NCBI GenBank assembly: GCA_050122915.1
Contig: JASFIA010000001.1
Span: 1-25,755, forward strand
DNA length: 25,755 nucleotides
Origin: Desulfobacterales bacterium
Lineage (GTDB): Bacteria; Desulfobacterota; Desulfobacteria; Desulfobacterales; UBA5852
Direction of reading: 5' to 3'
The stretch's first letter is position 1. Every line of letters starts with the position of its first letter. The translations under genes were made by a program, and so were the position numbers. Below are positions 2,697 to 16,077 of this stretch, piece by piece. The notes below the pieces were generated by a model. That model made no database searches and had not been told where the DNA came from. It saw nothing but the letters and a program-made list of their open reading frames with translations.

Positions 2697-2750
2697 TTTG
2701 ACCGTTTTGTGAATTGGGTTGACAATTTTTGACTGTTTGTGATTGATTCA
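2697..2750 (+). promoter_or_regulatory. Promoter and phased direct-repeat operator of the DeoR cluster
   Basis: TGA cores at 2699, 2710, 2720, 2730, 2740 (units TTTGACCGTT, TGTGAATTGG, GTTGACAATT, TTTGACTGTT, TGTGATTGAT); consensus TTGACA at 2719-2724. Confidence 0.65.
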
Positions 2751-2787
2751 GGGAAACTTCCCGAAAGCGCCTCTGAAAGAACCGGTC

Positions 2788-3609
2788 ATGGATACCAAGA
2801 ACGCTTCTGGCCTCATACCGGCACAGCGTCGCAGCCTCATTCTCGAGCTGATACGCCAAAACGGAGTCATCTCCGTCCAAGAGCTCTCCGATGTCATCGA
2901 CGTGTCTCTGTCCACCATTCGCCGTGATCTTTCCTGGCTGGCAAGGGCGGGCGCCGTGCACCGGAGCCATGGAGGCGCTGCCCTGAAGACCCGCCAGGCA
3001 ACGACATTCGAACCGTCCCATCAGGTGTCTTCACGGGTCGCTCATCGAGAAAAAGCCGCCATTGGGAAACGGGCCGTCGAGCGGTTAGAGGCCCACCAGA
3101 GCGTCATCTTCGATTCCAGTTCCACCGTATATGAGGCAGCTCTCCAGGTTGTCCGGGAGGGGTTGCCACTGACCGCAGTGACCAACGATATTCGTATCGC
3201 AGGGCTGCTTGCCGAGTGCTCGTTCATAAAGCTCATCGTGAGCGGAGGATCCCTTCGCGAGGGATCCTGTACCCTGCTGGGGGAGCCGGGGGCGACCTTT
3301 CTGCGAAGACTTCACGTGGATGTTGCCCTCATCGGCATTCATGCCATAACCGACGCCACCCTCTGCGACACCTCCACGGACGTCGCCGAGGTCAAGCACC
3401 ACATGGCGGCGGCAGCCAAGCGGGTCCTGGTACTGGCGGATGCCGCCAAGTTCAATTCCCTGGCCTTCTGTGACGCGATCGATTTGAAAGCCGTGGATGA
3501 GATCATTACCGACCAGCGGCTCGATCCCGGGAGTCGCCGACGTCTTGAGAAGCAGGGCGTTCACCTGTGCATTGCCGTTCCGGAGGCAGACGATCCCGGC
3601 TCCAGATGA
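2788..3609 (+). CDS. DeoR/GlpR-family transcriptional regulator
   Basis: N-terminal HTH (RRSLILELIRQNG..SVQELS..VS.STIRRDL..L..RSHGGA), EK.AIG..A, IFDSSSTV, TNDI, D.A.IG, LADAAKF. ATG 2788 chosen because the GTG 2743 start lies inside the operator. Confidence 0.95.
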   Translation: MDTKNASGLIPAQRRSLILELIRQNGVISVQELSDVIDVSLSTIRRDLSWLARAGAVHRSHGGAALKTRQATTFEPSHQVSSRVAHREKAAIGKRAVERLEAHQSVIFDSSSTVYEAALQVVREGLPLTAVTNDIRIAGLLAECSFIKLIVSGGSLREGSCTLLGEPGATFLRRLHVDVALIGIHAITDATLCDTSTDVAEVKHHMAAAAKRVLVLADAAKFNSLAFCDAIDLKAVDEIITDQRLDPGSRRRLEKQGVHLCIAVPEADDPGSR

Positions 3610-3703
3610 CAGTCTCACCGGTTCGTGCGGGGGCGGCCGGTTCCTAGATTCTTTGACGTCCCCGGGCTTCCGGTTCGGCGCTACCGAAAAGGAGGATCAC
3701 CCA

Positions 3704-4549
3704 TTGGCTAAAAAACTCACCCGATTCGATCTTCAGCAAATGAAGGATAACGGACGAAGGGCCGTGTGGATGACGGCCTACGATTTCATCACCGCGAAGC
3801 TGGCGGAAGAGGCCGGCATGGACATGCTGCTGGTGGGCGACAGCCTCGGAATGGCCGTTTATGGCTATTCCGGCACCGTGCCCGTCACCATGGAACAGTG
3901 CATCTATCACACCGAAGCCGTGCGTCGAGCTGCGCCCGGCACCTTCGTGATCGGGGACATGCCCTTCGGGGCCTACCAGACCGGTGTCACGGATGCCTGC
4001 CGCAACGCCATCCGTTTTCACAAGGAAGCCGGTGTCGACTGCATCAAACTGGAAGGCGGCACTCGGGTGTCCGCAATCATCAGGGCGATCTCCGATGGCG
4101 GTATGCTGGTCATGGGCCATGTCGGGTTGACCCCTCAGAGCTCTGCCGCCATGGGCGGCTTCAGGGCCCAGGGGCGAACGGTTGACAGCGCTCGCGCCAT
4201 TATTGAAGATGCCAAGGCCGTCTGCGGCGCCGGGGCTTTTTCCGTGCTCGTAGAAGGGGTGCCGCCGGAAGTCACGGAGGTCATCCGGCGCGAGATTCCC
4301 ATCCCGGTGTACGGGATCGGGGCCGGTGACTGCGACGGCCAAGTCATGATCTGTTCGGACATTCTTGGACTATTCCAGGCGTTCACCCCAAAATTCGTCA
4401 AGCGATACGGAAACCTGGCGGAGGAATACCTGAAGGTGTTCACCGCATACGCGGATGACGTTCGAAGCGGAAAATTCCCCGGCGAATCTCACGTTTACCG
4501 CATGGCGGAGGGAGAAGCCGCAAAACTATCCCAAGAATGGAAACGATGA
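3704..4549 (+). CDS. panB: 3-methyl-2-oxobutanoate hydroxymethyltransferase (PanB/KPHMT family), possibly catabolic paralog
   Basis: TAYD, LLVGDSLGM, GDMPF, IKLEGG, GHVGLTPQ, GIGAG..DGQV, PKFVKRY; TTG start 3704 with AGGAGG RBS. Confidence 0.93.
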   Translation: MAKKLTRFDLQQMKDNGRRAVWMTAYDFITAKLAEEAGMDMLLVGDSLGMAVYGYSGTVPVTMEQCIYHTEAVRRAAPGTFVIGDMPFGAYQTGVTDACRNAIRFHKEAGVDCIKLEGGTRVSAIIRAISDGGMLVMGHVGLTPQSSAAMGGFRAQGRTVDSARAIIEDAKAVCGAGAFSVLVEGVPPEVTEVIRREIPIPVYGIGAGDCDGQVMICSDILGLFQAFTPKFVKRYGNLAEEYLKVFTAYADDVRSGKFPGESHVYRMAEGEAAKLSQEWKR

Positions 4550-5859
4550 CCATGGCCGACAGAGCCTTTTCCCTTGGATACGGAAAGGGGCGGATGGCGT
4601 TCGCCATCCCCGAGACCCATCTTCTCTACGAGCTGGTGGGTCGAAACCGCAGACCGCCCGCCGACCTGCCGACAGCCTACCGGCATGCCCTGGAACACCC
4701 CGTCGACAGCCCGCCCCTGAGGGAGATCGTCCGGCCGGGCGAGACCGTCGCCATCACAGTGAGCGACATCACCCGTGGGTGGCAGCGGAATCCCCTCACT
4801 CTGCCCATTCTCGTCGATTGCCTGAACGAGGCGGGGGTTTCCGACGATGACATCACCGTGATCATCGCCGTCGGCGCTCATCGGCAGAATACCCGCGACG
4901 AGGTCGTCGAACTCTGCAGCGAGGCGGTCTGCCACCGGGTGCGGGTCGTCAACCATGACGCCTGGGACTCGGCCAACATGGTCTCCTTCGGGAAAACGAG
5001 CCGGGGGACCGAGGTGGCTCTCAGTCGTATCGCCGTTGAGGCGGACCGGCTGATTCTGACCGGCGGTGTCATCTACCATTACATGGTGGGGTACGGGGGC
5101 GGACGCAAAAGCGTCATGCCGGGCGTCGCCTCCCTTAAAACCATCCAGCAGTGCCACATGTGGGCCATGGCCGGTGAGGTTGGAAAGGGCTCCAACCCCC
5201 TGGCAGCCAACATGAAAACCCGGGGCAACCCCGCTCACGAGGACATGATGGAGGTGGCGGCCTTTATCCAGCCCGACTTCATCGTCAACGTGGTGCCGAA
5301 CCTGGACGGTGACATCACCGGCATTTTTGCCGGGAACTGGGTGTCGGCCTGGTGGGAGGCAACGCGAATGGTCGACGGGATTTTCGGGGTGCCCATCAGG
5401 GAGCGGGCCGATATTGTCATCGCCTCGACCGGTGGCTATCCGAAGGACATCAACCTCTACCAGACACAGAAAACCATCGACAACGCCGTCTATGCTATGA
5501 AACCGGGGGGGGCGGCGATCATTCTGGCGGAGTGTCCCGACATCATGGAGCCCAGGGAGTTTTTCGACTGGTTCAACCATCCGTCGGCCCTGCAGTTGGA
5601 ACAAGCGGTCAGGGACCATTTTCTCATTTCCGGCTGGGTGGCCGTCCGCCAGCTGGAGTACTGCCAACAGGGCACCATTATTCTCGTGACGGAGGAGAAA
5701 AACCTTGAATTGGCGCGGCGGGCGGGGGTCATTCCGGTCACTACTACGGCGGAGGCCCTGCAATTGGCCTACGACAGCTGCGGCGCCGATCCCCCCAGTG
5801 TTACAGTCATGCCCCAGGGGGCGAACACTTTTCCCATCCTCGAGCCGACACCGGCCTGA
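4546..5859 (+). CDS. larA: LarA-family nickel-pincer-nucleotide racemase/epimerase (paralog 1)
   Basis: SDITR, AVGAHR, HYMVGYGGGRKSVMPG, downstream His (QQCH), DINLYQTQK, GGAAIILAEC; ATGA overlap with the panB stop. Confidence 0.9.
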   Translation: MTMADRAFSLGYGKGRMAFAIPETHLLYELVGRNRRPPADLPTAYRHALEHPVDSPPLREIVRPGETVAITVSDITRGWQRNPLTLPILVDCLNEAGVSDDDITVIIAVGAHRQNTRDEVVELCSEAVCHRVRVVNHDAWDSANMVSFGKTSRGTEVALSRIAVEADRLILTGGVIYHYMVGYGGGRKSVMPGVASLKTIQQCHMWAMAGEVGKGSNPLAANMKTRGNPAHEDMMEVAAFIQPDFIVNVVPNLDGDITGIFAGNWVSAWWEATRMVDGIFGVPIRERADIVIASTGGYPKDINLYQTQKTIDNAVYAMKPGGAAIILAECPDIMEPREFFDWFNHPSALQLEQAVRDHFLISGWVAVRQLEYCQQGTIILVTEEKNLELARRAGVIPVTTTAEALQLAYDSCGADPPSVTVMPQGANTFPILEPTPA

Positions 5860-5923
5860 TGATGGGGCGGATTACCGTGAGCGTTTTCCCGAACCCCAAA
5901 CCACTCAGGACAAGGAGGAATTC

Positions 5924-6928
5924 ATGGGCAAGCGAATGGCAGCAGCAGTGATTCTGGCAGTGACCCTGGCGCTGATGGCGGTGCCGGCATTGGCGGCGAC
6001 CGTCCTCAAACTGGGAACCTCAACCCAACCCTCCCACATCTACAACGTGGCGGCTGAACACTTTGCCAAGATCGTTGCCGAGAAATCCAATGGAGCCCTT
6101 GAGGTTCAGGTGTTCCCGGCAGCCCAGCTGGGCTCCGAGCGGGACATGGTGGAGGGACTTCAGTTGGGATCCCTTGAAATGACCCTGACCTCCACCGGCC
6201 CGTTGGGCAACTTCGTCCCCCAGGTCAAGCTGTTCAATCTTCCCTTTCTCTTCAAGGACCGGGAGACCTGCTACAAGGTGTTGGACGGCCCGGTCGGCAC
6301 ATCGATCGCCGACAAGTTTCCGGCGGTGGGTATCCGTTCTCTGGGCTGGTTTGAAAACGGGTTTCGAAACGTCACCAACTCCAAGCGGGCCATCATGGCT
6401 CCCACCGACATGGACGGCCTGAAAATCAGGGTGATGGAGGATGACGTCTTCATCCTGACCATGAAATCCCTGGGTGCCAGCCCCCTGCCCATGGCTTTTG
6501 GAGAGCTCTACACCGCACTGGAGCAGAAGACCGTCGATGCCCAGGAAAACCCTCTGGCCGTCATTCATTCCTCACGGTTCTTCGAGGTTCAGAAGTATTT
6601 GGCCATGACCGGTCATTTTTATTCGCCGGCGATGCTTCTCATCAGTGAAATCACCTGGAAGTCCCTGTCGCCCGAGCACCAGAGCATCATCACCGACGCC
6701 GCCGCTCAGGCGAGGGATTTCGAGCGGAAAATTTCCCTCGAGGCCGATCAGAAACTCGAAGCGGAGCTGAAGGCGGCGGGTATGACGGTCACCCATCCGG
6801 ACAAAACGCCTTTTGTCGAGGCGGTTGCAGGCGTCTACGAAAACCCCTCCGTGCTGAAGGCCATAGGCGGGGGGGATGCGGCGGAGGGACAAAAATTGAT
6901 CGAGGCCGTCCGCAACGCATCGAACTAA
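5924..6928 (+). CDS. dctP: TRAP transporter periplasmic solute-binding protein (DctP family)
   Basis: Signal peptide (..AVPALA), QLGSERDMVEGLQLG, LFNLPFLF, GLKIRVM, MAFGELYTALEQKTVDAQENP; AAGGAGG RBS. Confidence 0.95.
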   Translation: MGKRMAAAVILAVTLALMAVPALAATVLKLGTSTQPSHIYNVAAEHFAKIVAEKSNGALEVQVFPAAQLGSERDMVEGLQLGSLEMTLTSTGPLGNFVPQVKLFNLPFLFKDRETCYKVLDGPVGTSIADKFPAVGIRSLGWFENGFRNVTNSKRAIMAPTDMDGLKIRVMEDDVFILTMKSLGASPLPMAFGELYTALEQKTVDAQENPLAVIHSSRFFEVQKYLAMTGHFYSPAMLLISEITWKSLSPEHQSIITDAAAQARDFERKISLEADQKLEAELKAAGMTVTHPDKTPFVEAVAGVYENPSVLKAIGGGDAAEGQKLIEAVRNASN

Positions 6929-6964
6929 TTCCCATCACGCTATGTCAGCATGACAGCGCAGATA

Positions 6965-6996
6965 CCGGTCCAGACCGAATCCTACGGCTGGACCGG
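6965..6996 (+). other. Intercistronic stem-loop after dctP, probable mRNA-stabilising structure
   Basis: ccggtccag (6965-6973) pairs with ctggaccgg (6988-6996), with an inner ccg/cgg stem; no U-tract. Confidence 0.45.
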
Positions 6997-7044
6997 CGAT
7001 GCGAGCCGATGGGTTTCACCTTTTGCGATCGGGAACCTTGACCC

Positions 7045-7533
7045 ATGCAAACCCTTCTGTCGTGGATGGACCGAATGATCAATTGGGCGCTGGCGGTCCT
7101 GATGGCTGCCATGGTGGTGGTCATCGCTGCTCAGGTCTGGTACCGATTCGTCTTAAACGATCCCTTATCCTGGTCTGAGGAACTGGGGCGCTATCTCTTT
7201 GTCTGGATTTCTTTTATGGGGGCCGCCGCCGGCGTCCGTTACCAGGTGCATCTGGGGATCGATCTGCTCCAGAAGGTCCTGCCCCCCAATGCCTACAGGA
7301 TCATGGTCATCCTGATGAACGTCATCATTCAGGTGTTTCTGGTGACCGTCATCTACTGGGGATTCAAGATCCTGGGGATCATCCGGTTTCAGACCAGCGC
7401 CTCGATGAATGTCTCCATGCTCTATCCCTACCTGGCCGTACCGGTTGGGTGCATTTTCATGCTGATCAATTCCTTGAGGGTATCCGCCGCCGCCTTCCGG
7501 GGCCGTCGTCTGGACCGGGAGGTGATTCTATGA
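7045..7533 (+). CDS. dctQ: TRAP transporter small permease
   Basis: Four hydrophobic segments; QVWYRFVLNDPLSWSEELGRYLFVWISFMGAA, HLGID. Confidence 0.93.
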   Translation: MQTLLSWMDRMINWALAVLMAAMVVVIAAQVWYRFVLNDPLSWSEELGRYLFVWISFMGAAAGVRYQVHLGIDLLQKVLPPNAYRIMVILMNVIIQVFLVTVIYWGFKILGIIRFQTSASMNVSMLYPYLAVPVGCIFMLINSLRVSAAAFRGRRLDREVIL

Positions 7534-8807
7534 CCGTCATTCTGTTCGCCGTCCTCCTTATCTGCTTCGTTGTGGGCATGCCCATCGCCTTTTCCCTCGG
7601 GGTGGCTTCGGTGGCCACCCTCCAGTTCGGTTCCAATCTGCCACTGACCCTCGCGGCACAGCGCCTCTTCACGGGCACCGACTCCTTTCCCCTGATGGCG
7701 ATCCCCTTTTTCATGCTGGCCGGCGAGCTGATGGAGTCCGGAGGGATTTCTCGGCGGCTATTTGATTTCGCCCATGCCCTGGTGGGATTCGTTTTTGGCG
7801 GACTGGCGATGGTAGCGGTGGTCGCGGCCATGTTCTTCGCGGGCATCTCCGGCGCCGCTGCGGCCGACACCGCAGCGGTCGGAGCGGTATCTATCCCGGC
7901 CATGATCCGAAACGGCTACCAGAAAGGATTTGCCGCCGCCGTTCAGGCGGCGGGGGGGTCCATCGGTGTCATCATTCCTCCCTCCATACCCATGATTATC
8001 TTTGGCGTGGTGGGCGGCGTTTCCATCGGCAAGATGTTTATGGGCGGGTTTATCCCCGGCGCCTTGATCGGCGGTGGACTCATGCTCACCAGCTATTTCA
8101 TGGCCAGAAGGGCCGGCTATCGGAAAGAATCCTTCCTGGGATTTCGGCAAATCGTGCGGACCTTTTTGGGGGCGATTTGGGCCCTGCTCATGCCCATCAT
8201 CATTCTGGGGGGGATTCTTGGAGGCATTTTCACGCCCACGGAGGCGGCGGTGGTGGCCGCCCTCTATGGTCTTGCCGTGGGGTTCTTCATCTATAGAGAA
8301 CTCCGGATTAAGGATCTTCCCCGCATCTTCGCCAAGGCGGCCATCTCTACCTCCACGGTGATGCTGCTCATCGCCACCGCCAACATCTTCGGCTGGATTT
8401 TGACCGCGGAGCGGGTGCCCCAGAACGTCGCCGCCTATCTGGTGACCCTCACGGCTTCCAAGCACGTCCTTTATGCCTTGATCCTGGCCTGTCTCCTCGT
8501 GGTGGGAACCTTTATGGAGACATCGGCGTCCCTCATCATTCTGACCCCTGTCTTCCTGCCGGTGGTAGAACAGTTCGGGATCGATCCGGTCCACTTTGGC
8601 GTAATCATGGTGACGGCTCTGGCCATCGGCATGCTGACGCCGCCCCTGGGCATCTGTCTTTTCATATCGTGCAACATCGCTAGGATCGAACTCTCGGAGA
8701 TCATCCGATTTATTTTGCCCTTTCTGGCCATTATGATCGGCCTGCTGGTGCTGATGACCTACGTTCCCGAAATTATTCTTTTCGTCCCTAATCTCTTAGG
8801 AGAATAA
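7530..8807 (+). CDS. dctM: TRAP transporter large permease
   Basis: FPLMAIPFFMLAGELM, FAGISGAAAAD, IIPPSIPMI, GIFTPTEAA, DPVHFG, GMLTPPLG; ATGA overlap with dctQ. Confidence 0.96.
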   Translation: MTVILFAVLLICFVVGMPIAFSLGVASVATLQFGSNLPLTLAAQRLFTGTDSFPLMAIPFFMLAGELMESGGISRRLFDFAHALVGFVFGGLAMVAVVAAMFFAGISGAAAADTAAVGAVSIPAMIRNGYQKGFAAAVQAAGGSIGVIIPPSIPMIIFGVVGGVSIGKMFMGGFIPGALIGGGLMLTSYFMARRAGYRKESFLGFRQIVRTFLGAIWALLMPIIILGGILGGIFTPTEAAVVAALYGLAVGFFIYRELRIKDLPRIFAKAAISTSTVMLLIATANIFGWILTAERVPQNVAAYLVTLTASKHVLYALILACLLVVGTFMETSASLIILTPVFLPVVEQFGIDPVHFGVIMVTALAIGMLTPPLGICLFISCNIARIELSEIIRFILPFLAIMIGLLVLMTYVPEIILFVPNLLGE

Positions 8808-8812
8808 CCCCT

Positions 8813-10087
8813 ATGCCCCAGGTCACCTTCCCATTCGGTGGTGAAAGCCTGTCCGTCGATGTTCCGGACCGAAATCTGGCTGAAGTGTTGGCCCCCAAGC
8901 CTTCGAGATCCATCGACGACCTGCCGGCGGCCATTTCGGCTGCCCTCGACAGCCCCATCGACCAACCGCGGCTTGAGGAGTGGGTTCACTCCAGCGACAG
9001 GGTGCTGATCGTCAGCGACGACATTACCCGTTTGACGCCCTGCGATCGCATCATTCCGCCCCTGCTCGACCGGTTGAATGCTGCCGGGGTGCCGGACGAT
9101 CGGATTTCTTGCATCATGGCCCTGGGAACCCACCGATACATGACCGAGTCCGAGATGGTTCAAAAAGTCGGAGAAACGGTTTGCCGGCGGATTCTCGTCT
9201 TCAATCACGAATGGCGGGATCCGAAGGCTCTGGCGGACCTGGGTGCCTCCGAGCAGGGCACGCCGCTGGTGGTAAACCGGGCGGCGGTGGAGGCGGAAGT
9301 CGTCATTGGATTGGGGGCAATCGTTCCTCACCACATCCCGGGTTTTTCCGGTTCCTCCAAGATTATCCAGCCAGGTATCAGCGGCTCCCGGACCACAGCG
9401 GAAACCCATCTGCTATCCTGCGGCGGCGGCGGGGACTCCTTTCTTGGCGCCGAGGACAATCCGGTGCGTCGGGACATGGACGAGATGGCCGATCGGGTCG
9501 GGATGAAAACCATTTTCAACGTGGTCATGGACAGTCAGGGGGCTGTGGTAGGCGTCTTTTTCGGAGAGATGCGCGGCGCATTCCGGAAGGGGGTGGAACT
9601 GGCCAGGGAGATCTACGGCATCCCCTATCGCGAAGTGCCCGATGTGGTGATCGCCAATGCTTATCCTTGCGAGCTCGATTTCTGGCAGTCCCACAAGGCC
9701 CAGTATCCGGCCCAGCGGATGATCCGTCCCGGCGGCACTATCATCGTCTGCACGCCGGCGCCGGAAGGGGTGAGCCCTGTGCACACGGAACTGCTTGAAT
9801 TTACGGCATGGTCTTCCACGGATATCAAAGCGGCCTATCGGAAAGGCCGGATTTCCAACGGGGTGGCCTGCGCACTGGCCGTCGCATGGGCCATGGTGAG
9901 GGAAAAGGCATCTGTCATTCTTTTTTCTCCAGGCATCCCGGAACCGGACAAGCGCCGGTTGGGGCACACCCACGCACCATCCCTGGAATGGGCGATGGCG
10001 GAAGCCATTCGCCGGCAGGGCAGGGATGCACGGATCTCCGTGCTGACCCATGCCCCGGATATGCTGCCCATTGGCCCGATGGCTTGA
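8813..10087 (+). CDS. larA: LarA-family nickel-pincer-nucleotide racemase/epimerase (paralog 2)
   Basis: SDDITR.TP, ALGTHR, PHHIPGFSGSSKIIQPG, AETH, LDFWQSHK, PGGTII..TPAPEG. Confidence 0.9.
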   Translation: MPQVTFPFGGESLSVDVPDRNLAEVLAPKPSRSIDDLPAAISAALDSPIDQPRLEEWVHSSDRVLIVSDDITRLTPCDRIIPPLLDRLNAAGVPDDRISCIMALGTHRYMTESEMVQKVGETVCRRILVFNHEWRDPKALADLGASEQGTPLVVNRAAVEAEVVIGLGAIVPHHIPGFSGSSKIIQPGISGSRTTAETHLLSCGGGGDSFLGAEDNPVRRDMDEMADRVGMKTIFNVVMDSQGAVVGVFFGEMRGAFRKGVELAREIYGIPYREVPDVVIANAYPCELDFWQSHKAQYPAQRMIRPGGTIIVCTPAPEGVSPVHTELLEFTAWSSTDIKAAYRKGRISNGVACALAVAWAMVREKASVILFSPGIPEPDKRRLGHTHAPSLEWAMAEAIRRQGRDARISVLTHAPDMLPIGPMA

Positions 10088-10108
10088 AAATAAAGGCACC
10101 TGAGCCTT

Positions 10109-11386
10109 GTGAACGATAACAATATCCATGTGGCGGTTGTGGCCGATGACCTGACCGGTGCGGCCGACACCGGCGTTCAATTCTGTTCCGTTGCGGAGCC
10201 GTTTGATCTGCTGCCGTGGCAGCCCCGGGAGTGGTCCGGCGGCTTCTCCGGGGCAGTGAAGGGTTTGGCCGTTTTTACCAACTCCCGGCACGATTCACCC
10301 CCAGCAGCCGCTCGCAAAGTGCGTCGGGTTGCCGATCTCATCAGGAGGCATGCCCCCAGGGTCGTCTACAAAAAAATCGACTCCTGTCTGAGGGGCAATC
10401 TCGGTTCTGAAATCGATGCGCTCCTTGAGTCCCTTGAGTGCCCGGTGAGTTTCATCGCCCCGGCGCTGCCCGGTCAGGAGCGGACCACGGAAAACGACGT
10501 TCATCGGGTTCGAGGCGTCCCCGTGGCGGAGAGCGAGATCGCCCTCGACCCCCTTTGCCCGGTATCGGAGTCCCGGCTGTCCCGGCTGCTGGCCGCCCAG
10601 AGCCGGTATCCTGTCGGGCGGGTGGGGCTGGAGGATGTCGCCGCCGGCTCGGAGCGGCTTCGGGCGGCCATCGGTTCCCGGATGGCCGAGGGGTGCCGGC
10701 ATATCGCTTTCGATGCCACCGAAACCGTCCATCTGGATGCCATCGCAGCCGCAGCCACCCGGTTTTTTACAGGCGCCCTTTTGGTCGGATCCGCCGGTCT
10801 TGCCGCCAGCCAGGCGTCCTGGCTGGGAGAAAAGACCCGGACATTGGCGTCACTCCCTACCCGGCGACTTCAGCGGATGCTTTGGGTTTGCGGGTCGGCA
10901 ACGACGGTGTCGCTCCGTCAGGCGGAGGCGCTCAGGGACCGTTCGGTGGTCGCCCCGATCGTCTTGCCGGCAGCCATGCTGGCTGATGCCGAGAGCGCAT
11001 CGGGTCGGAAAGGGTTTGTCGATCAAGTGATCGCCGGCTGGTCCCAGGGGGTTCGGATGATTTTGATCGAGCCCCTCGGAAAGGGGCCACATGCTGATCC
11101 AGCACTGGTGGTTGCCGGGCTCGGGGCGATTGTGGCCGATATCGTCCGCCTCACGTCGCCGGAAGGCCTGTTTTTGACCGGAGGCGATACCGCCGAGGCT
11201 GTCTGGCGCTGCCTCGGGGCTGCCGCCATCCGCCTTGAAGGAGAGGTCTTGCCTGGCGTGATTCGAGGGCGCTGGATTGGAGGCGCCATGAACGGCGGGA
11301 CAGTGATCACCAAGGCCGGGGCCTTCGGCGACCCGGAAACCCTGTTAAATCTCTATAGCCAATCCGTGAGAGGGGTGACGCAATGA
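10109..11386 (+). CDS. Four-carbon acid-sugar kinase (DUF1537/DUF1357; DtnK/DenK type)
   Basis: ADDLTGAADTG, YKKIDSCLRGNLGSE, PALP..ERTT, LTGGDTA, ITKAGAFG; adjacent to pdxA; GTG start. Confidence 0.9.
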   Translation: MNDNNIHVAVVADDLTGAADTGVQFCSVAEPFDLLPWQPREWSGGFSGAVKGLAVFTNSRHDSPPAAARKVRRVADLIRRHAPRVVYKKIDSCLRGNLGSEIDALLESLECPVSFIAPALPGQERTTENDVHRVRGVPVAESEIALDPLCPVSESRLSRLLAAQSRYPVGRVGLEDVAAGSERLRAAIGSRMAEGCRHIAFDATETVHLDAIAAAATRFFTGALLVGSAGLAASQASWLGEKTRTLASLPTRRLQRMLWVCGSATTVSLRQAEALRDRSVVAPIVLPAAMLADAESASGRKGFVDQVIAGWSQGVRMILIEPLGKGPHADPALVVAGLGAIVADIVRLTSPEGLFLTGGDTAEAVWRCLGAAAIRLEGEVLPGVIRGRWIGGAMNGGTVITKAGAFGDPETLLNLYSQSVRGVTQ

Positions 11387-12411
11387 GCACAGGCCACCGT
11401 CCGATTCTGGGCATAACCATGGGAGATCCCGGAGGGATCGGCCCTGAAATTTGCGCCAAAGCACTCAGGGACGATGCCATCTACGATATCTGCCGCCCCC
11501 TCGTTGTCGGTGATGCCGGCGTTATGGGTAATGCCGTGGACTTCTGCGGGCTGGGACTCGATGTCTACTCGGTGGTGAACCCCACTGACGGGGCTTACCG
11601 CAAGGGACGAATCGACGTCCTGGACTTGACCAACATGCCGATGGCCGAGCTACGGCATAAGACAGTGACCCCGCTCCAGGGCAAGGCATCCTTCGAGTAC
11701 ATCGCGCGGGCGATCGCCCTGGCCCTTGCCGGTGACATCGACGGCACGGTGACGGGACCGATCAACAAGGCCTCCATCAACGCAGCCGGGTTCCATTACG
11801 CCGGTCACACCGAGATCTACGCCCATCTCACCCGAACCCGGGACTACTCCATGATGTTGGTCGAAGGGGGGTTCCGGGTCACCCACGTGTCCACCCATGT
11901 CTCATTGAGGGAGGCCTGCGATCGGGTGAAGAAGGAGCGGGTAGAGACGGTTGTCGACCTCACCCATGACGCCTTGACCCGCCTGGGTATTCCCAGGCCG
12001 CGAATCGCCGTTGCCGGCCTCAATCCCCACTGCGGGGAAGGGGGGCTCTTTGGAACCGAGGACGACCGGGAGATCGCCCCGGCAGTGGCGGCGGCCCGAG
12101 AAAAGGGACGGCTGGTCCAGGGGCCTCTACCGGCCGACACCGTGTTCTCGAAAATGCGGGGAGGCATGTTCGACGCCGTGGTGGTCATGTATCATGACCA
12201 GGGCCATATCCCCACGAAGCTGGTGGGCTTCCAGTACGACGACAACACCGGCACATGGGGCCAGATGGCGGGCGTCAACGTCACCCTGGGACTCCCCATC
12301 ATCCGCACTTCCGTGGATCACGGCACCGCCTTTGGAAAGGCCGGTGAGGGCCGTGCCAACCCCCAGTCCATGATCGAAGCGGTTAAGCTTGCCGCCCGAA
12401 TGGCCCAGTGA
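11383..12411 (+). CDS. pdxA: PdxA-family dehydrogenase, PdxA2 type (4-phospho-D-threonate/erythronate 3-dehydrogenase, decarboxylating)
   Basis: GITMGDPGGIGPE, TGPINK, GHTE, LNPHCGE, MYHDQGHIP, VNVTLGLPIIRTSVDHGTAF; ATGA overlap with the kinase stop. Confidence 0.93.
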   Translation: MSTGHRPILGITMGDPGGIGPEICAKALRDDAIYDICRPLVVGDAGVMGNAVDFCGLGLDVYSVVNPTDGAYRKGRIDVLDLTNMPMAELRHKTVTPLQGKASFEYIARAIALALAGDIDGTVTGPINKASINAAGFHYAGHTEIYAHLTRTRDYSMMLVEGGFRVTHVSTHVSLREACDRVKKERVETVVDLTHDALTRLGIPRPRIAVAGLNPHCGEGGLFGTEDDREIAPAVAAAREKGRLVQGPLPADTVFSKMRGGMFDAVVVMYHDQGHIPTKLVGFQYDDNTGTWGQMAGVNVTLGLPIIRTSVDHGTAFGKAGEGRANPQSMIEAVKLAARMAQ

Positions 12412-12446
12412 AAAGCCGACGTGGCCCGCATTACAGGGGAGACACC

Positions 12447-14114
12447 ATGCGCAGCCGGAACATCCTAAGCCGCCCGGAATGGAGCATCAACCGGGCCTAC
12501 TACAAATCCATGGGTTACACGGATCTGGATCTCGACCGTCCCCTTATCGGCATCGCCAATGCATGGAGTACGACCGTGCCCGGCCACATCAACTTGAGAC
12601 AAGTGGCCGAATCCGTGAAGGCCGGTATCTGGAGCACTGGCGGAACTCCTGTGGAATTCGGCGTGATCGGTGCCTGCGACGGCATCGCCGAAGGTCACGC
12701 GGGAATGAGATACATCCTCCCCACCAGGGATGTCATCGCCGACAGTATCGAACTCATGGTTCAGGCCCATCAGTATGATGGTGTGGTTTTGCTGGGTTCC
12801 TGCGATAAAATCGTACCGGGTATGCTTATGGCCGCCGCCCGGCTTGATCTTCCGGCCATCCTGGTCAATGGCGGACCGATGTTGGGGGGGCCAGAGATTG
12901 CCGGCCGGATCTCGGATTCCACTTCCATTATCGAAGCCGTGGGTCGCCTAAAAAAGGGGGAAATTACCGAGGCGGATCTGGCCGGCATGGAGGATGCCTG
13001 TGCACCCACCTGCGGTTCCTGCTCCTTTCTTGGAACCGCCAACACGATGGGATGCATTGCAGAGGCACTGGGCATGTCTCTTACCGGAAGTGCAGTGATT
13101 CCAGCCACCCACGCCCGTCGCATGCACGTGGCCCAGGCCAGCGGCCGGGCCATCACGAGACTGGTCAAGGACGGTGTCGGCGCCCGACAGATTCTTACCG
13201 GCGAGGCCATCGAAAACGCCGTTCGCCTCACTGCCGCCATCGGCGGGTCCACCAACGCGGCCCTTCATATCCCGGCTATTGCCTACGAAGCCCACGTTGC
13301 ATTCGATATCGGGATGTTCGACAGGATCAGTCGGACAACGCCCCTGATCGCCAAGATGAACCCTGCCGCCGCCGTCAATGTGATCGATTTTTACGCTTCC
13401 GGCGGCGTGCCTGCGGTCATGGCGGAGCTGATGCCTCTGCTCAACACAGAGGCTCTGACGGTAACCGGAATGACCATGGGGGAAAATCTGGCCGGCTGCC
13501 GTTCCCCGAACGATGCGGTGATCCGAACCCTCGAAGCGCCCTTCAGTGCCACCGGGGGACTGGCGGTTCTCTACGGGAGCCTCGCCCCCCAGTCGGCCGT
13601 GACGAAACCGGCGGCCATTCGAAGCGACATGTTGATCTTTTCCGGACCGGCCAGGGTCTTCGACTCAGAGCAGCAGGCCAACACGGCCATCCTGCAAGGA
13701 GCGGTGATACCGGGGGACGTTGTGGTGATCCGCTATGAGGGGCCCAAAGGAGGGCCGGGAATGCCCGAGATGTTCAAGGCCATGAAGTTGATACACGGCT
13801 TGGGACTGTCCGATCGGGTCGCCCTCGTCACCGACGGCCGGTTTTCAGGAACCAACAATGGGTGCTGCGTCGGCCATATCTCTCCGGAGGCCATGGAGGG
13901 TGGCCCCATTGCCCTGGTGCAAGACGGCGACACCATCACCATCGACATCCCCGGCAAACGACTTGATTTGACGGTATCGGAAGCCGACCTCGATGCCCGC
14001 CGCTCCCGGTGGGAGCGGCCGGCGCCCCGGGTCTCGGAGGGCTACCTTTACCTCTACAGTCGACTGGCCGAGTCTGCCGACAAGGGAGCCATTATCCGAA
14101 ACCGGGCCGGTTGA
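12447..14114 (+). CDS. ilvD: IlvD/Edd-family Fe-S dehydratase (dihydroxy-acid or sugar-acid dehydratase)
   Basis: PGH..L, CDGIA.GH.GM, GSCDKIVPG, CGSCSFLGTANTM, GGSTNA, RYEGPKGGPGMPEM, TDGRFSG, GHISPE; ATG 12447 follows a GGGGAG RBS. Family is secure, substrate is not. Confidence 0.88.
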   Translation: MRSRNILSRPEWSINRAYYKSMGYTDLDLDRPLIGIANAWSTTVPGHINLRQVAESVKAGIWSTGGTPVEFGVIGACDGIAEGHAGMRYILPTRDVIADSIELMVQAHQYDGVVLLGSCDKIVPGMLMAAARLDLPAILVNGGPMLGGPEIAGRISDSTSIIEAVGRLKKGEITEADLAGMEDACAPTCGSCSFLGTANTMGCIAEALGMSLTGSAVIPATHARRMHVAQASGRAITRLVKDGVGARQILTGEAIENAVRLTAAIGGSTNAALHIPAIAYEAHVAFDIGMFDRISRTTPLIAKMNPAAAVNVIDFYASGGVPAVMAELMPLLNTEALTVTGMTMGENLAGCRSPNDAVIRTLEAPFSATGGLAVLYGSLAPQSAVTKPAAIRSDMLIFSGPARVFDSEQQANTAILQGAVIPGDVVVIRYEGPKGGPGMPEMFKAMKLIHGLGLSDRVALVTDGRFSGTNNGCCVGHISPEAMEGGPIALVQDGDTITIDIPGKRLDLTVSEADLDARRSRWERPAPRVSEGYLYLYSRLAESADKGAIIRNRAG

Positions 14115-14304: not shown

Positions 14305-16077
14305 ATGGGCCGACCCGTCGCCGTTGCCATCGCCGTTCTGTGGATGGTTATTTGTTTCTCCACCCGTGCCATCGAAGCAGGCGTCCCTCCGGCAGACGTG
14401 ATTCTATACAACGGCCGGATTCACACAATGAACGATCGTCAGCGCCAGGCGGCCATGATTGCCGTGGTCGGGGATCGCATCGTCCATGTGGGAGGGGCGG
14501 GGGATGTGGACCGGTGGCGGGGGGACGCCACCCAACTGATCGATCTCGAGGGCCGAACCGTGATCCCGGGACTGATCGAAAGCCACGGGCATCTCCTCGC
14601 ACTGGGGCGTTCTCGAATGATTTTGGATCTAAGCGGGGCCCATAACTTTGACGACCTCGTCCGGCGGGTGGCATCGGCGGTTGAGGCAACCCCTTCCGGG
14701 CAATGGATCCTTGGGGCGGGATGGCATCAGAGCAAATGGGATCCGCCGCCGGATCCGGCGGTCAACGGGTTCCCTGTCCATCGCGTCCTGAGCCAGGTCA
14801 GTCCGTCTCATCCGGTGTTTCTTACCCATGCAAGCGGTCACGCCGGACTGGCCAACGCCATGGCCATAGCCCTTGCGGGCATTACGCCCCATACCGTGGT
14901 CGACGGCGATGGAGAAATCATTCGGGAGCCAGACGGAACGCCCACGGGCGTCTTTACCGAGCGTGCACAGGAGCTGATCCGCCGGGCCATACCCGAGGCC
15001 ACGCCGGAGCGGAATCGACAGGCCCTCTCCCTGGCCATTTCAGAGGCCCTCGAAAACGGGATCACGAGCTTCAGGGATGCCGGCTCCAGCAGGGAGGATA
15101 TCGACCGATACCGATCCTTCTTGTCCGAAGGCCGCCTGGGGGTGAGGGTATGGGTGATGGTGGACGGGAGTGACAGCGATCTGGTGGAGGAATGGTTGGA
15201 ACGGGGGCCCGAGATCGACTCGGGGAACCGATTCCTGACCATTCGGGCCTTCAAGCTGTTTGCCGATGGGGCCCTGGGTTCCCGGGGCGCATGGCTTCTG
15301 TCTCCTTACGCCGACCGGCCCGAGCACTCGGGCCACAGCCTGATCGCCATGGAAGACCTTTATCGACTCTCGGCGGCCGCATTGAGGAGGGGGTTTCAGC
15401 TCTGCGTCCATGCCATCGGAGACCGGGCCAACCGGGAGGTGTTGAACCAGTTCGAGCGCGCCTTCACATCTTATCCCGCCAATTCACAAGACCACCGTTT
15501 CCGGATCGAGCACGCCCAGCACATCGATCCCTCGGATATCCCGCGTTTTGCCAGGATGGGGGTGATCGCCTCGGTTCAAGGAATTCATTTCTCTTCGGAT
15601 CGACCCTGGGCCATCGACCGCTTGGGCAGGGACCGAATCAGTGACGGGGCCTATCCATGGCAATCGCTATTGGCTTCGGGGGCTGTGGTGGTCAACGGTA
15701 CGGATGCCCCGGTGGAGCCCATAAATCCCATCGCCTCCTTCTACGCGTCGGTTACCCGGAAAACCCTCGACGGTCGACCCCAGAACGGTTTCGAGCCTTA
15801 CCAGCGGATGAGCCGTCATCAGGCTTTGAAGGCCTATACCCTGGATGCGGCCTTTGCCGGATTCGAGGACTCGGTCAAGGGATCCATCGAGGTCGGAAAG
15901 CTGGCGGATTTCACCGTGCTTTCCCGGGACATCATGACCATTGCCGAGGACAGGATTCTCGGCACACGGGTCGAGATGACCATTATCGGGGGGCGTGTGG
16001 CCTATTCCAGGGCGGAGCGACGAGGGGCTTCCGTCGCCCCCACGCCGTCGACATCGAGGGTTACGAGATATCCATGA
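14305..16077 (+). CDS. Exported metal-dependent amidohydrolase (amidohydrolase_3 / YtcJ-like)
   Basis: Signal-peptide-like N-terminus; NGRIHTM, DLEGRTVIPGLIESHGH, KLFADGALGSRGA, HAIGDRA, RIEHAQ, GTDAPVE, KGSIEVGKLADF. Confidence 0.9.
   Translation: MGRPVAVAIAVLWMVICFSTRAIEAGVPPADVILYNGRIHTMNDRQRQAAMIAVVGDRIVHVGGAGDVDRWRGDATQLIDLEGRTVIPGLIESHGHLLALGRSRMILDLSGAHNFDDLVRRVASAVEATPSGQWILGAGWHQSKWDPPPDPAVNGFPVHRVLSQVSPSHPVFLTHASGHAGLANAMAIALAGITPHTVVDGDGEIIREPDGTPTGVFTERAQELIRRAIPEATPERNRQALSLAISEALENGITSFRDAGSSREDIDRYRSFLSEGRLGVRVWVMVDGSDSDLVEEWLERGPEIDSGNRFLTIRAFKLFADGALGSRGAWLLSPYADRPEHSGHSLIAMEDLYRLSAAALRRGFQLCVHAIGDRANREVLNQFERAFTSYPANSQDHRFRIEHAQHIDPSDIPRFARMGVIASVQGIHFSSDRPWAIDRLGRDRISDGAYPWQSLLASGAVVVNGTDAPVEPINPIASFYASVTRKTLDGRPQNGFEPYQRMSRHQALKAYTLDAAFAGFEDSVKGSIEVGKLADFTVLSRDIMTIAEDRILGTRVEMTIIGGRVAYSRAERRGASVAPTPSTSRVTRYP

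Follow-up and report, generated by a model that had tools for sequence, protein, structure and literature searches.

Why does a gene for ketopantoate hydroxymethyltransferase (KPHMT, PanB) stand at the head of an operon of the acid-sugar type? This question is raised by the gene at positions 3704-4549 of a 25,755-nucleotide stretch from a Desulfobacterales bacterium (contig JASFIA010000001.1 of assembly GCA_050122915.1), which was analysed over its whole length and is hereafter called the window. To our knowledge, the only physiological role accepted for PanB is catalysis of the first step towards pantoate and vitamin B5. A sequence-only reading of the window had proposed that this PanB is probably repurposed for catabolism and cleaves 4-hydroxy-2-oxobutanoate (HOB) into pyruvate and methylene-tetrahydrofolate (methylene-THF). 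The comparison described below shows that the gene belongs to a paralog lineage, PanB2, which probably has a second, catabolic job. Repurposing for catabolism is supported by the paralog clade, by the conserved operon and by a recurrent triad with an IlvD paralog, whereas the specific substrate can be named only tentatively. The family membership is ordinary; the lineage, the fixed LarA partner and the catabolic-type context are new, and literature searches revealed neither an earlier account of PanB paralogs within operons of this type nor one that links PanB to LarA.

Identification of the gene product

The window has a G+C content of about 60%, and its open reading frames (ORFs) were scanned against Pfam and NCBIfam models. 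The gene in question is as follows.

3704 to 4549, + strand: PanB2, ketopantoate hydroxymethyltransferase-family paralog (PF02548, 329 bits; TIGR00222, 285 bits)

The gene starts with TTG at 3704 after a strong ribosome-binding site (aaggagga, 3690-3697), stops with TGA at 4547-4549 and encodes a product of 281 amino acids. This product passes all PanB family models over its full length (328.9 bits with a cut-off of 28.7 for Pfam PF02548, 285.4 bits with a cut-off of 207.55 for TIGR00222 panB, and 325.8 bits with a cut-off of 272 for NF001452), and aligns over its entire length with the solved enzymes of M. tuberculosis (1OY0, 224 bits) and E. coli. Its translation contains VGDSLG, IGDMPF, KLEGG, GHVGL, VEGVP and GQVMICSD; the sequence-only reading was right about the intact magnesium and catalytic motifs and about the GQVMICSD segment, and its coordinates are correct. 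D45, S46, D84, K112, E114, H136 and E181 (E. coli numbering) are all retained in the alignments to E. coli PanB and 1OY0, and these residues are the Mg2+ ligands and catalytic residues according to the literature on 1M3U and 1OY0. By alignment, PanB is intact and keeps all catalytic residues. PanB2 and the KPHMTs of E. coli (1M3U) and M. tuberculosis (1OY0) belong to the same hidden Markov model family and have identical Mg2+ ligands and catalytic residues, and the enolate/hydroxymethyl-transfer chemistry is therefore very likely shared. PanB2 differs from these enzymes in that it forms a separate clade, most carriers of which also have a canonical PanB-PanE pair, in residues at or beside the specificity pocket (I200Y, I212V, L213M, V214I, M215C and H216S), and in that its partner is a LarA homologue in a DeoR/IclR-regulated transport operon, not PanE or PanC.

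Phylogenetic position of the window PanB

Four hundred Desulfobacterota genomes were sampled for PanB copies. Most of them carry one PanB, which is 43-50% identical to the window PanB and usually lies next to PanE, and about 35 of the 400 carry an extra copy with 57-77% identity (PanB2). The low-identity copies are typically PanE-adjacent, often together with a tripartite ATP-independent periplasmic (TRAP) transporter (L049, L051-L057, L064, L069), and the high-identity copies form one clade in the tree, with a support of 100/99. On this tree, the window panB is placed in the PanB2 lineage. The phylogeny with neighbourhoods, which the sequence-only reading had named as a check, thus gives a separate, LarA-linked PanB2 clade beside the canonical PanB-PanE copies. 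Most PanB2 carriers also keep the canonical PanB-PanE pair; in G104 and G139, no more than 10 kb separates it from the PanB2 operon. A sister PanB clade occurs in IlvD-PanB-LarA1 triplets (L067, L068).

The same reading had given weight to the lack of panC, panD and panE in the window. None is present among the window ORFs scanned with Pfam, but this point carries no weight, because panB never adjoins panC in five relatives; the absence of a nearby panC is uninformative in this lineage. PanE adjacency was used as the marker of a biosynthetic copy in place of panC adjacency. The window assembly is a metagenome-assembled genome (MAG) of 509 contigs that is 70% complete. The PanB at 3704-4549 is the sole PanB found in it, PanC is located on C82, where it is cut by the contig end, and PanE is located on C25; PanD was not found in this assembly. 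This PanB may not be the only copy, because the assembly is only 70% complete. As for the case, raised by the sequence-only reading, that this gene is the only panB and groups with biosynthetic enzymes, the gene falls into the separate 100/99 clade, but it is the sole copy in the 70% assembly and PanE-linked members are nested within the clade.

The number of PanB copies per genome ranges from one to six in Desulfobacterota and is highest in Dethiosulfatarculus sandiegensis (six). PanB-family copy numbers of 4-6, as in G440 (D. sandiegensis), G457, G441 and G448, are far above the need of pantothenate synthesis.

The operon and its conservation

The window PanB is encoded by the second of ten co-directional genes at 2743-14114 (DeoR, PanB, LarA1, DctP, DctQ, DctM, LarA2, DUF1537 kinase, PdxA and IlvD paralog). 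The other nine are as follows.

2743 to 3609, + strand: DeoR-family regulator with HTH_DeoR and DeoRC domains (PF00455, 125 bits; PF08220, 59 bits); these are the limits of the longest ORF, and the real start is possibly further in
4546 to 5859, + strand: LarA1, nickel-pincer nucleotide (NPN) dependent 2-hydroxyacid racemase/epimerase homologue of the LarAH10 family (NF052525, 594 bits, cut-off 540; Lar_N, LarA_C)
5924 to 6928, + strand: DctP, TRAP solute-binding protein (SBP) with signal peptide (PF03480, 312 bits)
7045 to 7533, + strand: DctQ, TRAP small membrane subunit (PF04290, 101 bits)
7530 to 8807, + strand: DctM, TRAP large membrane subunit (PF06808, 420 bits), with an ATGA overlap with dctQ
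8813 to 10087, + strand: LarA2, second, divergent LarA homologue (Lar_N, 192 bits)
10109 to 11386, + strand: DUF1537 four-carbon acid-sugar kinase (SBD_N and NBD_C)
11383 to 12411, + strand: PdxA2-like oxidative decarboxylase (PF04166, 351 bits)
12408 to 14114, + strand: IlvD2, dihydroxy-acid dehydratase paralog (TIGR00110, 674 bits, cut-off 618), overlapping the pdxA stop

Two statements of the sequence-only reading are borne out by this arrangement: panB is the first enzyme gene after a sugar-type repressor, the DeoR-family gene at 2743-3609 lying directly upstream, and panB is coupled to larA, the ATG of larA1 at 4546 overlapping the panB stop (ATGA). The longest ORF for DctM begins at 7449, and the start at 7530 was taken, which gives 425 amino acids, the length of the orthologues in L027 and L074.

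The conservation of this arrangement was scored with the window proteins in 80 species-level PanB2 loci from genome collections. The close set consists of the 47 loci whose PanB shares at least 72% identity with that of the window, 30 of which have at least 9 kb downstream. LarA1 of the LarAH10 type is adjacent to PanB in 39 of the 47 loci. A LarA homologue is present in 29 of the 30 well-flanked loci, the TRAP system in 19 and the LarA2-DUF1537-PdxA set in 17. A DeoR gene is located 5' of the PanB orthologue in 16 of the 42 loci with enough upstream sequence, and an IclR gene in four others. PanE is adjacent in a single one of the 80 PanB2 loci (L102), and canonical copies are usually PanE-adjacent. 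The full ten-gene order is repeated in uncultured Desulfosarcina and related MAGs (L075-L077), in L074 and in the cultured Desulfofustis glycolicus DSM 9705 (L092), and the PanB-LarA/TRAP/LarA2/DUF1537/PdxA order is also found in G001, L027, L029, L031 and L073. In several families, cultured strains included, PanB2 keeps its leading position in a regulated operon of TRAP, LarA, DUF1537 and PdxA genes.

IlvD2 orthologues with 73-80% identity are located at the operon end in L074, L075-L077 and L092, and beside PanB-LarA1 in L114. The triad of PanB, LarA1 and IlvD occurs in three arrangements: at the operon ends, in the separate operon of L114, and in the triplets of L067 and L068. In Dethiosulfatarculus sandiegensis (L114), IclR-PanB-LarA1-IlvD is divergent from IclR-DctPQM-LarA2-kinase-PdxA. 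The gene set therefore consists of two separable modules, because L114 splits it into two divergent operons. In many loci (e.g. L107, L113 and L116-L118), PanB2-LarA is present and homologues of the transporter, kinase, PdxA and IlvD were not found within about 10 kb.

Identities of the operon proteins

DctP, for which the AlphaFold2 model has a pLDDT of 94, is 42-44% identical to the solved SBPs 4PDH, 4PDD and 4PAK/4P9K, of which 4PDH, 4PAK and 4P9K are the closest at 44%; the ligands assigned to these individual structures are presumptive. The DUF1537 kinase is nearest to the D-threonate kinase (DtnK) model but divergent, with 221 bits not reaching the cut-off of 450, and scores 111 bits, below the cut-off, with the 3-oxo-tetronate kinase (OtnK) model. 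The best solved relative of PdxA2 is 6E85, D-threonate 4-phosphate dehydrogenase (282 bits, compared with 188 bits for E. coli PdxA), and PdxA2 scores 299.7 bits with NF002891, below the cut-off of 583. By these scores, the kinase and PdxA2 are relatives of DtnK and D-threonate 4-phosphate dehydrogenase, not assured equivalogs. The Gerlt laboratory reportedly described in 2016 the catabolism of D-threonate and D-erythronate via a DUF1537 kinase and PdxA2 with a TRAP transporter (summarised in PMC13753588). The window has the same combination of TRAP system, DUF1537 kinase and PdxA2-like dehydrogenase, encoded as one block of genes that run in the same direction and overlap at their ends, but differs from the described pathways in that PanB, the LarA homologue and the IlvD paralog are missing from them and present in the window. 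By analogy, the TRAP-LarA2-kinase-PdxA2 module matches the route from D-threonate to dihydroxyacetone phosphate (DHAP) and CO2 with an added C2 epimerase. The SBP group to which DctP is similar is reported to bind pantoate and D-erythronate (PMC5812351, PMC11668362).

With 594 bits, LarA1 exceeds the LarAH10 cut-off of 540, whereas LarA2 scores above the cut-off of no NCBIfam model, the best being malate racemase LarAH6 (289 bits, cut-off 500). LarAH10 of Megasphaera elsdenii epimerises many 2-hydroxy acids, of which gluconate/mannonate are the best so far; its substrates include 2,4-dihydroxybutyrate and 4-deoxy-tetronates (PMC11770544). No mention of PanB was found in that paper. LarC, which is needed for NPN synthesis, is encoded in the window assembly (G000:C27, 506 bits) and in G001, and was not found in the congener G002, which has no LarA operon. 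IlvD2 is 49% identical to the other IlvD of the genome (C52) and is altered around the third cluster cysteine, in the Cys-motif region.

Substrate pocket

The pocket was compared by alignment to E. coli PanB, in which GQILVMHD (residues 210-217) corresponds to GQVMICSD. The window PanB shows I212 to V, L213 to M, V214 to I, M215 to C and H216 to S in this segment and, outside it, I200 to Y with I202 retained. The changes at or next to the pocket that extend over the PanB2 clade are I200 to Y/L, V214 to I and H216 to S, and the low-identity canonical copies have an I200...GQ[VI]LVxHD pocket. I202, I212 and V214 are known determinants of the nucleophile and electrophile scope of KPHMT (PMC7610986). 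The sequence-only reading had argued that a bulkier residue at the V214 equivalent could suit a substrate without the gem-dimethyl group. The residue is indeed Ile, but the functional argument is weak, because the I/V swap is subtle and L102, described below, is a counterexample. A clean correlation of V214 with PanE and of I214 with the operon was considered and rejected: V214 is carried by PanE-linked members of the PanB2 clade, but these three cases are close relatives of one another, and the correlation is broken by L102. The polar changes (I200 to Y, H216 to S) also occur in PanE-linked members.

Proposed catabolic reaction

The reading that we prefer, tentatively and at somewhat less than even confidence, is that PanB2, a lineage confined to Desulfobacterota, was taken into acid-sugar operons as a constant companion of LarA and cleaves HOB into pyruvate and methylene-THF. 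The TRAP system would import tetronate, a four-carbon 2,3,4-trihydroxy acid, as judged from the homology of the SBP, the kinase and PdxA2. The D-isomers would be converted to DHAP and CO2 by LarA2, the DUF1537 kinase and PdxA2 in this order, by chemistry known from other systems. LarA1 would bring the other isomers into the 2R form, and the 2R tetronate would be dehydrated to achiral HOB by the IlvD paralog or, in genomes that do not encode it, by the housekeeping IlvD. PanB2 would then run its normal Mg2+/enolate chemistry backwards, so that C4 is transferred to tetrahydrofolate (THF) and pyruvate and 5,10-methylene-THF are produced. PanB2 probably keeps its ketopantoate-forming activity, and may be the sole source of ketopantoate in genomes without a canonical copy.

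The operon can be read in this epimerise-dehydrate-cleave manner with known chemistries only, and the reading accounts for the triad in its three arrangements and for one transporter serving both modules. The recurrence of an IlvD paralog with PanB and LarA1 fits what a dehydrate-then-cleave route needs. E. coli wild-type KPHMT accepts pyruvate and formaldehyde, giving HOB (PMC10127515), and P. putida PanB can in part sustain growth that depends on HOB (bioRxiv 10.1101/2025.02.17.638773). The claim of the sequence-only reading that KPHMT uses other 2-oxo acids therefore agrees with the literature, in which pyruvate and a one-carbon (C1) unit give HOB (PMC10127515; bioRxiv 10.1101/2025.02.17.638773). 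The class II pyruvate aldolases RhmA/YfaU and GarL interconvert pyruvate plus C1 and HOB in the synthetic homoserine cycle (PMC10127515; bioRxiv 10.1101/2025.02.17.638773). Their net carbon chemistry is that proposed for PanB2, but they belong to another protein family and use free formaldehyde, whereas PanB2 would put the C1 unit on THF. Formate-tetrahydrofolate ligase is present in the genome, and folate C1 metabolism is therefore available.

If this reading is true, PanB2 in its catabolic, transporter-linked operons represents a second role for the PanB family and a natural route by which the terminal carbon of an acid sugar is handed to THF without release of formaldehyde. Such capture by THF suits complete-oxidising sulfate reducers with folate C1 pathways. 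In synthetic C1 assimilation, the "HOB aldolase" step had to be engineered, and the reaction would be its equivalent in nature. As PanB2 is almost always paired with LarA, it also offers a concrete genomic context in which substrates can be assigned to orphan LarA homologues. Calls of pantothenate prototrophy for Desulfobacterota may be unreliable, because pipelines label all of the one to six copies panB. The full operon is also carried by a cultured strain, Desulfofustis glycolicus DSM 9705, in which the proposal is open to direct test.

Alternative functions

Several results weigh against HOB cleavage, and a dual or purely biosynthetic role of PanB2 is a serious rival. The canonical catalytic residues are present throughout, and therefore no new substrate is demanded by the sequence. 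The IlvD paralog is present in only 5 of the 30 well-flanked loci, so that a dehydratase from elsewhere is needed in most genomes. By its scores, IlvD2 belongs with the dihydroxy-acid dehydratases proper and not with those for sugar acids, its nearest solved structures being the true dihydroxy-acid dehydratases 6OVT and 6NTE. The minimal conserved unit is PanB2 plus a LarA; the constant partner is LarA, not a dehydratase. In G001, the nearest relative, two short fragments of an IlvD paralog (residues about 143-245) lie between pdxA and the amidohydrolase gene (L017:5678-5987), and from this remnant the gene seems to have been lost recently while the rest of the operon stayed intact. The genome of G001 is 96% complete. 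It encodes an orthologue 92% identical to the window PanB, and PanC and PanE as well, but has no PanB of the canonical kind; the only other copy, which is very divergent and on a long branch, lies in an OtnK/OtnC/OtnI-like cluster. PanB2 may still make ketopantoate, because G001 has PanC and PanE without a canonical PanB. G162 likewise has PanC, PanE and only a PanB2. Nested within the operon-type subclade are Syntrophales hisD-PanB-PanE members with 79% identity, whose pockets differ from those of operon-type members mainly by I/V swaps; little change therefore separates the two roles. In L102, a PanB2 with I214 adjoins PanE, contrary to a pairing of V214 with PanE and of I214 with the operon. 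From these comparisons, PanB2 is likely to be able to make ketopantoate still.

That PanB2 is nothing but a biosynthetic PanB, converting 2-oxoisovalerate to ketopantoate and placed in the operon through co-regulated pantoate import or by historical accident, is nevertheless rather unlikely. In this case, LarA1 and IlvD2 would serve branched-chain chemistry, LarA1 racemising 2,3-dihydroxyisovalerate or pantoate-like acids and IlvD2 making 2-oxoisovalerate. The gene contents of G001 and G162, the sole PanB of the window assembly and the nested PanE-linked members argue for this role, as do the score of IlvD2 above the IlvD equivalog cut-off, the pantoate/D-erythronate group to which the closest solved SBPs belong (PMC5812351), and the in vitro racemisation of 2,3-dihydroxyisovalerate and 2-hydroxy-3,3-dimethylbutyrate by LarAH10 (PMC11770544). 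A canonical PanB(-PanE) is, in addition, often located beside a TRAP system of the same family (L022, L049-L051, L060, L061, L065). However, most PanB2 genomes keep the canonical PanB-PanE pair, even within 10 kb of the PanB2 operon in G104 and G139, and G254 (95% complete) keeps PanB2 with no detectable PanC or PanE. Biosynthesis also provides no role for the strict LarA partnership, the DUF1537/PdxA2 genes and the sugar-type repressors, and the argument from a sole copy is limited by the 70% completeness of the window assembly.

It is improbable that PanB2 acts on another hydroxylated 2-oxo acid that is supplied by LarA rather than by a dehydratase. LarA would oxidise a 2-hydroxy acid, with NPN holding the hydride meanwhile, PanB2 would remove or add the C3 hydroxymethyl group, and LarA would return the hydride. 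Examples would be the interconversion of erythronate/threonate and glycerate plus methylene-THF via 2-oxo-tetronate/hydroxypyruvate, and removal of the branch of D-apionate, giving tetronate for the kinase and PdxA2. Such a couple requires no dehydrogenase or dehydratase, in accordance with the minimal unit of PanB2 and LarA (29 of 30 loci), and the polar replacements near the pocket (I200 to Y, H216 to S) are consistent with it, except that they also occur in PanE-linked members. PanB2 is found with tartronate-semialdehyde reductase in L040, a third PanB type is found with OtnK, OtnC and an OtnI-like gene in G001 and G004, and there is a precedent, in another scaffold, for hydride transfer between molecules by NPN (PMC13524815). 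Release of a 2-oxo intermediate is not known for any LarA-fold enzyme, however, the proposal is built on gene adjacency alone, and genes for apionate or apiose are not seen near the operon. The stricter form of this proposal, in which PanB2 and LarA are a self-contained hydrogen-borrowing pair that changes 2-hydroxy acids by one carbon without a net redox cofactor (for example, tetronate to and from glycerate plus methylene-THF, or apionate to threonate plus methylene-THF), was considered because PanB2 plus LarA is the minimal conserved unit, and is highly doubtful. A separate idea, that apionate is processed via ApnO as a PdxA-family enzyme, was dropped, as ApnO is similar to ketol-acid reductoisomerase (PMC13753588).

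Pantoate catabolism, in which imported pantoate would be oxidised to ketopantoate and this converted, by PanB2 in reverse, to 2-oxoisovalerate and methylene-THF, is the least likely reading and very improbable. In its favour are the reported binding of pantoate by the SBP group (PMC5812351), the reversibility of the PanB reaction, the presence of PanE in the genome, and an aminotransferase and a branched-chain-type binding protein encoded close to PanB2 in its more distant clusters. However, the operon encodes no pantoate dehydrogenase, an acid with a quaternary C3 cannot be a substrate for DUF1537/PdxA2, and pantoate is not known to be abundant in the environment as a substrate.

Transcription and habitat

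DNA nearly identical to the window is present in wetland and sediment metagenomes. In a wetland metatranscriptome, a few contigs of 151-267 nucleotides match deoR, panB, larA1, dctP, dctQM, the kinase gene and pdxA with 99-100% identity, and one of them begins 53 nucleotides 5' of the panB start; among these few short contigs, none matches ilvD2. These contigs are a weak sign of transcription, not of co-transcription, and carry-over of DNA is possible. A promoter scan gave nothing above chance, and a terminator scan gave no clear operon terminator. A 590-residue Amidohydro_3 protein is encoded at 14305-16077 of the window, after a gap of 190 nucleotides behind the operon; it occupies the same place in G001 (84%), is not present there in other operon carriers, and its gene is also matched by metatranscriptome contigs.

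Other gene clusters containing PanB homologues

In Desulfofustis-like genomes, a 124-residue ORF with no Pfam match lies between panB2 and larA1 (L027:10892-11266, L073:10888-11262). In G207 (L040:9629-11416), a gene for tartronate-semialdehyde (2-hydroxy-3-oxopropionate) reductase (439 bits, cut-off 397) is followed by PanB2 in a two-gene unit.

Distant PanB2 genes (56-69% identity) head IclR-PanB-(346-residue protein)-aminotransferase-TRAP clusters, and are also found in PanB-(421-residue protein)-aminotransferase clusters and beside a dihydrodipicolinate synthase-type aldolase and sugar-acid dehydratases. The proteins of about 346 and 421 residues are encoded directly 3' of distant PanB2 (L023:4628-5668, L033:10244-11509) and have orthologues in L020, L025, L037, L038 and L127-L154, often followed by a MppQ/GntC-like aminotransferase gene; they gave no match in Pfam, NCBIfam or the ESM Atlas.

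The third, very divergent PanB type is encoded at 6451-7281 of L018 (G001:C12:38000-52000) and in L062 (G004). It has a branch of 2.33 in the tree and the motifs VGDSCA, KFEA and GQLLVTPD. It is flanked on one side by an OtnI-like TIM-barrel gene and a gene for a 549-residue protein with a class II fructose-bisphosphate aldolase domain, and on the other side by genes for an Iso_dh-family dehydrogenase, OtnC (268 bits, cut-off 250), OtnK (555 bits, cut-off 350) and an SMP-30 lactonase. This PanB type in an Otn cluster is a second, independent link of a PanB homologue to tetronate catabolism.

PanB of the canonical type, with or without PanE, adjoins DctPQM in L049, L050, L051, L022, L060, L061 and L065, the DctM proteins being 50-55% identical to that of the window. 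This adjacency suggests either that pantoate uptake and synthesis are coupled in Desulfobacterota or that a transporter for 2-oxo/hydroxy acids is tied to PanB in these bacteria.

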